64,000 nucleotides of DNA, taken from contig OZ231126.1 in the NCBI GenBank assembly GCA_965153355.1, forward strand, positions 10,292,001 to 10,356,000. The letters are read 5' to 3'. Numbering within the stretch: position 1 is the stretch's first letter; every line of letters begins with the position of its first letter. Shown one piece after another: positions 43,047-46,000 of this stretch. The notes under the pieces were generated by a model that saw nothing but the letters and a program-made list of their open reading frames with translations, was not told the DNA's origin and did not search any database. A program made the position numbers and the translations under genes. This DNA comes from Flaccisagitta enflata (Eukaryota).

Positions 43047-46000
43047 ATGGCGGGGTACGATAAAAACATTTCTACTATGCGAGCACAACTGCGTGTTCCA
43101 GTGACACCTGGGTTAACTCAAGCAGAATTTCAAACTTTGGAAATTTTATATGAGCATTGCTCCGGGCAATGCAAATGTCCGGCGATTAAAATCTGCAACA
43201 TACAAAAACTTAGTCCTAGTTATGTTGCCGGCCTCGCGTTGCATTGTTCATCATTATCCAACGTGCTGACCTATGCACCAACCATACAGCAACCACAGCA
43301 ACAACATCAACAACACCATCCCATCGCCGTGGTGCGTGCTCAACAGCATTTGGGTACAACTACATCATCAACATCATCATCATCATTGCCCGATCAAACT
43401 CAACAACAACATCAACAACAACATCAACAACAACATCAACAACAACATCAACAACAACAACTCCATCATCTCTACCCCCGTCTATGACATATCCTTACAA
43501 AACGCTATTCAGCGACAAACAGCGTTCAACAACAACCCGTTGATAATCACCAGCATCTACAATATTATGCGTCATCATCATCATCATCATCGTCAAATCC
43601 GCATCATTCAAACCCCCCACCTGTTAATGTCGACAGTGATGGTTTCCTAACTCCGACGTCCGAGACAGTCACCCTCGAATTATACGGCACTAGAACGCTG
43701 CCGTCGTCGGTGCCCAATGCCGCGTCGGCGCCGGAACCCAATTTTATTTCTCTGGAGTCGTTTGCCGCCAAAACCTCGCCGCCGGTGCAATTGGTCAACA
43801 ACGCGGTGGGTGCGGTAGATGCGGAATCCGATTCCGCGGACGAGTTTGTACGTAGAGTCTATGAAGAGGCCGTTGGCCAAGTGAAGATACCGGGGCTTTC
43901 TACACCGCCGGAAGACGATTTGTCACTGCCTTTATCGCCGGAGTTATCGACTACACACTCGGCGGACCTTTCAAACGCGGCGAAACAAGTTGAAGTCCTC
44001 ATCGGCGTTCATCACGATCTTTCAGGTAAGAATTCAATTTGTTTATTTGTTTATGTATCTGTTTATGACAACGAAAGGCAATGAGAGGCAAAGAGAGGCA
44101 AAGAGAGGCAATGGGAGGCAATGCAATGGCAATGAAAGGCAACGAGAAATATGTCCGATTGATTGGCTAAGCCGCAGAGTCTAGGCCATGTCATTCAGCT
44201 CGATAAGATTTCCTCCTTGACGACGACGACGATGACGACGAATCTTCATGACAAAGATGACGATGCCGACGACGAGAACGAATCCGGCCGCGCAGACGAT
44301 GACCGCGCCAAGTTCGGCGTCAGAAAGACCGGAAAACCACCTGTTGTTATAGATGACATAATGACACAATGATAACGTCAATGACGTCAGTGAAACCCAA
44401 GAAGACGTAATCTATAAACTGCATAAGAAGTGTGTGTGTGTAAATGTGTGTGTGTGTGTGTGTGTGTGTGTGTGTGTGTGTGTGTGTGTTTGTGTGTCTA
44501 ACCCATTGCCGCCGCGGCCATCGTCGTCGTCATTCCTCGGCGCCGCTGTCGGCACGATCATCGGGTCGGTCGACACGTGGGCCGGACCGATAGGCGTCAT
44601 CGATGACGTACTGACCGACGGACGGACCGATGAACCAGTCGGTGGATTGAAAGGAGAGGAAGAAGACGAAGCGCCGGTGGCGATGGTGGTGGTGGTGGTG
44701 GTGCTGCTTGAGAGAGGAGCACAAAGCTCCCAAGCCTCGTCGGTGGGATAATCGTTGTCTTCTGTAAATGATATATTTAGCTATCATCAGATGAAACTAC
44801 ACCAAGATTGACGAGAGATATGTCCGATTACTCTTAAATATCACAGATAAATCACCTTTATCCAAGACGCAATCCTCGAACGATGGCGCTGCCATGGTGA
44901 TGATGATGATGCTGCTGTTGTTGTTGTAGGATGATGCTGTTGCTGTTGTTATTATTGTTTTGTTATTGTTTGTTGTTTAAGTAGGAAAGAAAACTGATGA
45001 GAGAAACGGAACACAAGTTATTTACAAATATTTCATTTTTTTTTTTTTTGCAGATGAACTTTTGGGCATTATCGACGATGAAGTCCAAGAACAAGACAGA
45101 GATAAAGACGAAGCCAACGATGCTCCAACGACGATGGTTCCAACAACGGCTTCAACTCCAAGAGTCGGCAAAATCGGAATCAAAAACATAAATTTGGCTA
45201 CGAATCAACCACCCAAACGGCTCTCACGCGAGTTTGACCACAGTCATCAGCAACAACATCATCATCATCAACAACAACAACAACAACAACAACAACAACA
45301 ACAACAACAACAACAACAACAACAACAACAACAACAACAACAACAACAACAACAACAACAACAACAACAATCAAACTCAATGCCGGACCATCTTTTCCAG
45401 CTAAATGACAAAAGGGAGGAAGTAAACATGGATCTGGCGGTGGCCAAACGCCGGAAAGTTCGACACGAAAATCATCTTCAGTCTCTCGGCGGAGGCCTCC
45501 TTGTTGATCACGTATCGACGCCTCGTCAGGATGCGAGTGGATCGGAGTGTCCATTTCCTTCGTCTTCGTCCACTTCATCGCGTGAGCTTATTCAACATGG
45601 AAAAAGCGAAAGCGCCCACGCCTTTGCGACGAACACTGCCACACCCGTTGTTGCAGGCGATTTAGCCTCCACTCGTCCATCGTCGTTTCTTCAACCATTG
45701 GCGCGGATGCCGACCCCAAGACCCGCATCGTCAACACCGGCGCGCATCACGAGCGCCGTTTACACGCCACAAGTGGAAGAAGTAACCCCGCCGCCGCCGC
45801 CGCCGCAGCTACCGCGGGCGTCGGGAGCATCACCCGCGCATCAACAACGTCGAGGAAGGAGCGTCCCCATTCAGGCGAGAGGAAACCAAACCACTGCGTC
45901 GTCCAGCAACCCAGGCGCAACTTGCATCCCTCCGACGCATCAACCTACGGAAAGGAGAAGAAAAGTATACCCATGTAGTCATTGCCCCACCCGCACGCGC

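Follow-up and report, generated by a model that had tools for sequence, protein, structure and literature searches.

Herpesviruses provide the closest described cases of genes that lie on the opposite strand within an intron of a conserved viral gene. UL16 and UL17 lie within the UL15 intron (PMC3079670), and BRRF1 of Epstein-Barr virus (EBV) lies in the first intron of BRLF1 (PMC2654727); the available parts of these papers describe both layouts as kept across the lineage. As described, these nested genes are single open reading frames (ORFs) rather than multi-exon membrane genes. The EBV gene for LMP1, a six-pass signalling protein of the membrane, has three exons and lies antisense in the first intron of LMP2A, although our literature search gave no confirmation of that layout. 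Here we analyse a 64,000-nucleotide (nt) stretch of the Flaccisagitta enflata genome (C1:10292001-10356000, hereafter the window), in which an element of the Polinton/Maverick type carries a three-exon gene for a small membrane protein antisense within an intron of its zinc-finger gene. The nested gene has no homology with the herpesvirus genes, LMP1 included, which belong to another virus realm. Because the nested layout has herpesvirus precedents, it is of limited surprise in itself.

The described animal Polintons or Mavericks (eupolintoviruses, 'adintoviruses') resemble this element in having a protein-primed DNA polymerase B (pPolB), an rve integrase, terminal inverted repeats (TIRs) and a 6-bp target site duplication (TSD), according to the available text of PMC8097293; they also have an ATPase, a protease, capsid-like genes and AGT-type ends, of which the present element has putative counterparts. 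Vertebrate Mavericks are described in the same text as intronless (PMC8097293), as are nematode Maverick core genes in the accessible part of 10.1101/2022.07.12.499685. Introns in Polintons as such are not unprecedented, since introner-made introns occur in dinoflagellate eupolintoviruses (PMC12166617); group I introns are known in cryptophyte Polinton-like viruses (PMC12220804), and the available portion of 10.1101/2023.08.22.554363 held nothing further on Polinton introns. The present element differs from the described animal Polintons in the GT-AG breaks in its core genes, its length of ~30 kb and the spliced gene antisense in its replicase unit. No report of a nested antisense spliced gene or of a membrane-glycoprotein family in Polintons was found in the literature, supplements and Repbase-type entries being outside the scope of that search. 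Polinton genes are normally annotated as plain ORFs, and it has long been asked if the Polintons of animals are genuine viruses that infect in stages.

The nested gene

We read the nested gene, with a probability of roughly 0.6, as an old and vertically kept accessory membrane-protein gene of an intron-rich Polinton/Maverick clade, whose product would function at host membranes. The evidence is at the level of DNA and consists of gene structure, conservation, selection and strand arrangement; at that level the three-exon antisense gene is real. The gene and the intron that holds it comprise the following features, in positions of the window.

44026..45053, plus strand: enclosing intron, 1028 nt, GT..CAG, phase 1; the reading frame continues past the junction and ends with the stop at 46792
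44856..44993, minus strand: nested first coding exon, with a strong unpaired acceptor before 44993, a 98-nt 5' untranslated region (UTR) containing an in-frame stop, the ATG at 44895 and the first Cys
44503..44761, minus strand: nested coding exon 2, with the second Cys and then a Ser/Thr/Pro-rich stalk
44181..44340, minus strand: nested coding exon 3, with an LSD-x-E-x-G motif, a transmembrane (TM) helix at ~44306-44247, an Arg-rich tail and the stop at 44183-44181
44042..44047, minus strand: AATAAA belonging to the nested gene; it begins 22 nt from the donor of the enclosing intron and is retained in a second copy of the element

An earlier sequence-only reading of the window had proposed a phase-consistent, three-exon membrane-protein gene antisense in this viral-type intron, and that proposal stands: both core junctions (44856/44761 and 44503/44340) are exact, and coding exons 44895-44856, 44761-44503 and 44340-44181 join into one open frame of 152 amino acids (aa). 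Both nested introns run GT..CAG; the first measures 94 nt and is in phase 1, the second measures 162 nt and is in phase 2. From its amino terminus the predicted protein consists of Met, a Cys, 17 residues, a second Cys, the Ser/Thr/Pro stalk, the LSD-x-E-x-G motif, the TM helix (maximum 19-residue hydropathy 3.13) and the basic tail.

Conservation across copies and families

A pPolB search of the genome (794 Mb in 9 contigs) gave 28 matches, whose upstream regions were grouped by similarity and a tree into ten families: the window; C7 (L056, L060); C8 (L064, L077, L078); a group at C1:103-112 Mb (L091-L094); L095; L096; L068; L062; L069/L066; and L070. Except for a second copy of the window element (copy 2), their pPolB is 21-31% identical to that of the window. 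The upstream regions of L070 and L097 were viewed as ORF lists only, and a third C7 copy (L058, L059, L098), with no zinc-finger/nested region within the 30 kb fetched, was excluded from the pair counts.

The frame had been expected to recur in other copies if the gene was genuine, and it is kept across related families. A nested multi-exon membrane gene is clear in six of the ten (window, C7, C8, the C1:103-112 Mb group, L095 and L096) and probable in L068, which has a TM exon with an acceptor. L070 is counted neither as having one nor as lacking one, and no nested gene was found in L062, with its intron of 164 nt, or in L069/L066. The intron before the TM exon is in phase 2 in the window, C7, C8 and L096 and in phase 1 in L093 and L095, and it lies four codons ahead of LSD in the window, C7 and C8. 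The intron that follows the first Cys by four residues is in phase 0 in C7, L093, L095 and L096, is shifted by one base (phase 1) in the window and is absent in C8, and the two Cys are 17 or 18 residues apart in all families (C-x17/18-C). When a profile was built from the C7 and C8 TM exons alone, the window exon ranked first among 1155 stop-to-stop frames of the window (E 5.8e-5, the next at 0.77). The motif LSD.[EQ].G occurs four times in six frames of 304,000 bases, each time in a nested gene; as it was derived from these genes, the count shows only its rarity elsewhere. Of the seven intron regions in which a nested gene is clear or probable, six contain a TM-plus-basic frame (C8 falls below threshold); neither of the two regions without a nested gene has such a frame, and among 122 control 1-kb element stretches one does. 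The spliced proteins align above all 1000 shuffles in three of three pairs, a score that their low-complexity content inflates.

Copy 2 (C1:110.77-110.80 Mb) is ~91% identical to the window element, and a zinc-finger search led to no place other than these two. Copy 2 retains the start codon of the nested gene (the ATG), its four core splice sites, its stop and its AATAAA, together with the 44993 acceptor and both enclosing splice sites. Between the two nested frames there are 13 synonymous changes in 102 sites and 12 non-synonymous changes in 297, a ratio of non-synonymous to synonymous divergence (pN/pS) of 0.32 (Fisher p 0.004), compared with 0.14 for pPolB and 0.23 for the zinc-finger exon of the same pair. 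The nested ratio is 0.13 in the C7 pair (p 0.0002) and 0.34 and 0.22 in two C8 pairs that share one member, so that values of 0.13-0.34 are found in four of six copy pairs; the two shifted frames of the same strand give 0.74-5.3. The C7 and C8 pairs differ by ten insertions or deletions, each with a length divisible by three, and an exact-motif check of two extra C8 copies found four of five sites in each.

On a 12-row pPolB tree the families with a nested gene are found to either side of the midpoint root, and L062, the family whose intron is short, groups with C7 and C8 (support 81/87, not starred); for these reasons loss of the nested gene in L062 is the simpler, but unproven, reading. The AATAAA that the sequence-only reading had ascribed to the gene is present in the window (44047-44042), where cleavage after it would probably fall on or near the enclosing donor, but it is not a general feature: two of the five families with a defined 3' region have it, one more has ATTAAA, and it is absent from C7 and C8. 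Acceptor-like sites lie downstream in the 3' UTR in three of five families, with none at threshold in the window or C7, and we therefore propose no additional 3' exon.

Two structural details were observed within single families. In C7 (L056:6258-6370 and L060) the TM-exon acceptor and first codons are tandemly duplicated, and only the second copy leads into the TM frame. In L096 (~4600-5050, minus strand) apparent extra short 3' exons extend the nested-gene tail with Tyr-containing motifs.

Start site, leader and topology

We somewhat favour translation from Met 44895, with the TM helix serving as a signal-anchor that leaves the N-terminus outside (type III). The ATG has an optimal Kozak-type context, and in C7, C8, L093 and L096 a Met lies 6-16 residues ahead of the first Cys; a clear signal peptide is seen only in L095. 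A single TM helix followed by basic residues, with no cleavable signal peptide, is predicted from the sequence in the window, C8, L093 and L096 and not in L095. Stops lie just upstream of the Met in L093, the upstream frame differs among the three C8 copies, and the in-frame stop in the window UTR indicates that the window stretch from acceptor to Met is untranslated.

An upstream leader is rather likely to be joined to the first coding exon at the acceptor before 44993. In six of six families an unpaired antisense acceptor with a score of at least 17 out of 22 lies within the enclosing intron, 52-83 nt from its 3' end, compared with 16% of 5000 random 130-nt stretches, although the families share ancestry and the six counts are not independent. 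With such an acceptor in all six, it is probable that transcription begins further upstream or that the transcript is trans-spliced. Thus the coding exons are nested in the intron as had been proposed, but the whole transcript probably is not. An acceptor-like site was also noticed by eye directly before the zinc-finger ATG (window 43030-43046), which bears on the question of leader or trans-splicing.

The enclosing replicase unit

The gene on the plus strand that holds the nested gene is followed in frame by the polymerase.

43047..44025, plus strand: zinc-finger gene exon 1, with a Cys-rich start and Gln/Ser low complexity
45054..46792, plus strand: zinc-finger gene exon 2, with a conserved C2H2-type domain
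46793..52186, plus strand: ORF of pPolB with 1797 codons, which continues the frame of the zinc-finger gene past a single TAG

Zinc-finger gene and pPolB are in frame behind a single TAG in four families (window 46790-46792; C7, L056:4499-4501; C8, L064:4635-4637; L062:5468-5470). In L092-L094, L096, L066, L069 and L070 one ORF holds both the zinc-finger domain and the pPolB (N-terminal) region, or the former runs into the latter, part of this evidence being weak, and the database protein P0016 has the same fusion. Since the zinc-finger domain is fused to pPolB in deeper families and in frame behind one TAG elsewhere, the enclosing gene is, by its predicted coding sequence, the front of the replicase unit. 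Read-through of the TAG is possible, and separate initiation of pPolB is also possible in the window, where a Met stands seven codons past the TAG. The window copy also has an in-frame stop in zinc-finger exon 1 (43485-43487). A matching phase-1 intron measures 1058 nt in C7, 999 in C8, 1964 in L093 and 164 in L062; the phase is 1 in all five families in which both ends and the frame are fixed, and the acceptors of L095 and L096 match phase 1. For the zinc-finger domain 24 relatives were found with E values of 0.001 or better; the ten of them that were looked up came mostly from ENA assemblies. A search of viral contigs gave one weak zinc-finger match of 27 residues.

The host element

The element extends from 38188 to the window-equivalent position 67869 (29.7 kb) and is of Polinton/Maverick type. 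Its remaining features in the window are listed here.

38182..38187, no strand: left copy of the 6-bp TSD; the right copy flanks the far end, 3.9 kb past the window (L027:3870-3875), and the duplication is perfect
38188..38253, plus strand: left TIR, ~68 nt, 93% identical to the right end, beginning AGTAGA
58456..59435, minus strand: putative spliced cysteine protease, presumably adenain-like, with His/Cys motifs seen by eye
59400..61176, minus strand: probable major capsid protein, in several GT-AG-bounded pieces picked by eye
63047..63949, minus strand: probable minor capsid (penton) gene, adjoining the rve integrase

The best atlas matches of the pPolB (0.92-0.94) carry DNA_pol_B_2 and Endonuclease_7, and a direct Pfam scan of it gave no match. 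The rve integrase lies just past the window (L027:2-1198) with E 3.2e-6 and 27.7 bits, under the curated cut-off of 32.6, and the C7 copy gives E 0.0016. TIRs of 105 nt and 129 nt were found in a C7 and a C8 copy. The element ends begin AGTAGA, one base off (AGT)2, the Polinton end motif being (AGT)2 or (AG)3. Because its pPolB, rve integrase, TIRs and TSD match the features given in the available text of PMC8097293, the element is a Polinton/Maverick.

The other core genes were recognized with less outside support. Scanning 16 window ORFs against Pfam gave no family above cut-off, and the exon pieces of the packaging ATPase and the protease, in which Walker A/B-like and His/Cys motifs were seen by eye in three families, had no Pfam match either. 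The adenain-like label of the protease is presumptive; a spliced gene conserved in three families is taken by us to be the major capsid gene from its resemblance to such genes, and the penton label is presumed from position. The probable capsid gene had no Pfam or PDB match, a PDB search with a capsid piece giving nothing below E 0.07. In three families GT-AG-bounded breaks divide the putative genes for the ATPase and the protease and the probable gene for the major capsid protein (L027:2552-3400, window 58456-61176, L101, L102, L104 and L105); the ATPase intron sits inside Walker A in three families, and one capsid intron position is common to the window and C8. The clade would thus be one of intron-rich Polintons whose core genes have predicted GT-AG introns. 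Its genes are split by strand, with the zinc-finger gene and pPolB on the plus strand and the integrase, ATPase, capsid, protease, nested gene and a left-arm membrane gene on the minus strand.

Several further observations concern the surroundings. Between pPolB and the protease (window 53739-58523) there are three to four minus-strand ORFs (712, 242 and 403 codons), 76-96% identical in copy 2 and with no Pfam family above cut-off. The host flank (window 1-38000) consists largely of tandem and simple repeats. Near the end of contig C1 (103-112.5 Mb) there is a cluster of at least eight Polinton copies, which belong to several families. The 6-kb insertion in copy 2, at C1:110775628-110781619 (between L023:9627 and L021:5621), has inverted ends that begin with AG repeats and an apparent 6-bp target duplication; it is perhaps a non-autonomous element of Polinton type.

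Paralogs and external searches

The left arm of the element carries a free-standing relative of the nested gene.

39585..41315, minus strand: nested-gene paralog, exons 41315-41121 and 41012-39585, 540 aa

This paralog has a signal-peptide-like segment, a C-x18-C pair, a phase-0 intron four residues after the Cys, a long Ser/Thr/Pro stalk, a TM helix and a long tail. Left-arm paralogs with the same Cys pair, phase-0 intron and signal-peptide-like segment occur in the window, copy 2, C7 and C8, and L063 has an intronless one. As they share the Cys pair and the phase-0 intron, the nested gene is, as judged from these predicted genes, one member of a small element-borne family. Further Ser/Thr/Pro-rich membrane genes were seen on the structural strand of left arms (window 39585-41315, L057, L061, L063, L065, L091:179-1405, L094, L095:3-836 and L096:123-2046); these left-arm genes form an E3-like cluster, and some of their tails are rich in Tyr and Pro.

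An AlphaFold model of the C8 tip, built from a shallow alignment of four sequences, is a helix-loop-helix with pLDDT 84-90 over residues 11-40. Exons 2 and 3 or their relatives matched no adenovirus E3 Pfam family at E 0.05. A search for sequencing runs gave two from one study, a marine metatranscriptome that shares 7% of the sequence words and a poly(A) run; the 7% is evidence neither for nor against expression.

Proposed role and alternative explanations

Under our preferred reading, the nested protein would be an accessory membrane glycoprotein belonging to the strand of the capsid genes, packed in the first intron of the opposite-strand zinc-finger/pPolB unit. Its two-Cys tip would be disulfide-bonded and its stalk O-glycosylated, and the protein would act at host membranes in the structural (late) phase, either in particle release or in shielding the cell or the particle from host defence. 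We give such a late role, akin to that of the small adenovirus E3 glycoproteins, about an even chance. Adenoviruses are relatives of Polintons; their E2B polymerase strand lies opposite the structural strand, with late genes inside E2B introns and a shared late leader, and ADP/E3-11.6K is a small signal-anchor glycoprotein with a basic tail that is made late. The likeness is one of analogy, for the E3 search above was negative, and to our knowledge the C-x17/18-C tip is not an E3 domain. More tentatively, and at less than even odds, these elements could be a lineage of animal Polinton viruses that are large and rich in introns and that divide their programme between two strands as adenoviruses do. 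On the replicase strand the zinc-finger domain would be fused to pPolB or joined to it by TAG read-through; the genes of the structural strand, among them a private family of small two-Cys, mucin-like membrane glycoproteins, would be spliced to a common upstream leader, and the nested gene would be a set of late-strand exons threaded through a replicase intron.

A number of results weigh against our reading. In copy 2 the nested gene is broken, since exon 2 has lost 4 nt and exon 3 is interrupted by the 6-kb insertion; the L095 copy carries an internal stop, and two pairs of the L093 family give no sign of purifying selection (pN/pS 0.84 and 1.57, from 10-16 changes). The shared ancestry behind the six acceptors belongs here as well, and in C7 and L096 the stretch from acceptor to Met is open and hydrophobic which, with the normal signal peptide of L095, makes an upstream coding exon possible. 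Protein-database searches for relatives of the nested protein found no homologue outside this genome, its exons had no Pfam family above cut-off, and a fold search with the 56-residue tip model returned no match at E 0.001. With no homologue, Pfam family or fold match, nothing external names the function of the protein.

The alternatives differ in where they place the start and what they make of the product. The sequence-only reading had added one further feature upstream.

45026..45036, minus strand: proposed micro-exon; it lacks support, as copy 2 retains neither its donor nor its acceptor

This 11-nt exon, spliced to 44914 and overlapping the polypyrimidine tract of the enclosing intron, was to supply a signal peptide, and the overlap was to enforce mutually exclusive expression. 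Within the window it does join in frame, the score of its acceptor (13) is on a par with those of the core acceptors (13 and 14), and the resulting N-terminus is moderately hydrophobic (best 11-residue hydropathy 2.14, against 2.66-2.98 in clearer signal peptides). In copy 2, however, donor and acceptor are both lost while the core signals are all kept, as is the stronger upstream acceptor (18); the ATG triplet of the micro-exon is still present there. No counterpart of the micro-exon was seen in C8, L093 or L096; the start in these families is a Met that precedes the first Cys by 6-16 residues, and no signal peptide lies in between, so that the proposed micro-exon and signal peptide are probably wrong. 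As for exclusion, convergent overlapping transcription units can interfere, and by its AATAAA the nested transcript would end at the donor of the enclosing intron; where both strands are read, transcriptional interference is likely to follow. But L062 keeps the intron without a nested gene, C7 and C8 have no AATAAA, and with that signal in only two of five families and one family lacking the nested gene there is no evidence of a switch. We consider the micro-exon and its switch improbable; the nesting would instead be gene packing alongside the split into an early and a late strand, with no dedicated switch. A signal peptide could also come from a distant upstream coding exon, making the protein an ordinary type I protein, or the unpaired acceptor could be a spliced-leader trans-splice site of an independent unit. 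All left-arm paralogs and the nested copy of L095 have signal peptides, the acceptor-to-Met frame that is open in C7 and L096 is Ile/Thr-rich, and unpaired acceptors shortly before the ATG are typical of trans-splicing animals. The in-frame stop between acceptor and Met in the window and L093, and the failure of the C8 copies to keep that frame, speak against the coding exon, and the open stretches of C7 and L096 differ in phase and mirror the simple repeats of the enclosing intron. We hold this pair of possibilities to be clearly less probable than a start at Met 44895.

Two alternatives remain. The main functional rival shares our gene model but makes the product part of an enveloped Polinton virion, as a structural protein of its envelope or as an attachment protein, instead of a modulator of the host cell. 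The gene is co-oriented with the capsid genes and kept across deep families, and membrane proteins are known from Mavericks, among them the nematode fusogen MFUS-1 (10.1101/2022.07.12.499685) and candidate adintovirus envelope glycoproteins (PMC11071296), as given in the available texts. MFUS-1, likewise Maverick-encoded, differs in being 866 aa long, with a gB-like class III fold and a signal peptide (10.1101/2022.07.12.499685), whereas the nested protein has ~150 aa and a mucin-like stalk. The nested ectodomain, at ~100 aa, is mostly of low complexity and without a fold match, which is not what is expected of a fusogen. The atlas likened the L063 paralog to a pneumovirus G-type mucin glycoprotein (best score 0.77, low recognition), which we treat as a lead only. 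Two of the ten families show no nested copy, and no fusogen-sized gene was noticed in the element, though no search was aimed at one; we regard a virion role as possible but the lesser prospect. Finally, we consider it highly improbable that the gene was captured from a host or that the frame arose by chance in an intron rich in repeats. Exon 2 is of low complexity, the genome is rich in repeats, and Mavericks do carry intron-bearing host cargo (10.1101/2022.07.12.499685, available text). Chance, however, is excluded by the conserved phases, motif, Cys spacing and purifying selection, and genome searches with the TM exon gave strong matches only in these elements, with weaker ones (E 0.35-5.3) at five other places. 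An ancient host origin of the nested gene may still lie behind its presence in the clade.

Significance

This clade, with predicted introns in its core genes, keeps a nested membrane gene, itself predicted to be spliced, in the replicase intron across families of only ~25% polymerase identity, so that annotation by ORFs only would miss whole genes in these elements. The nested family would be a new family of small viral membrane proteins. Its junctions are strand-specific markers that make early versus late expression testable from RNA data. If the reading of a two-strand programme is true, the nested gene would mark a regulated extracellular phase of these 'transposons'.

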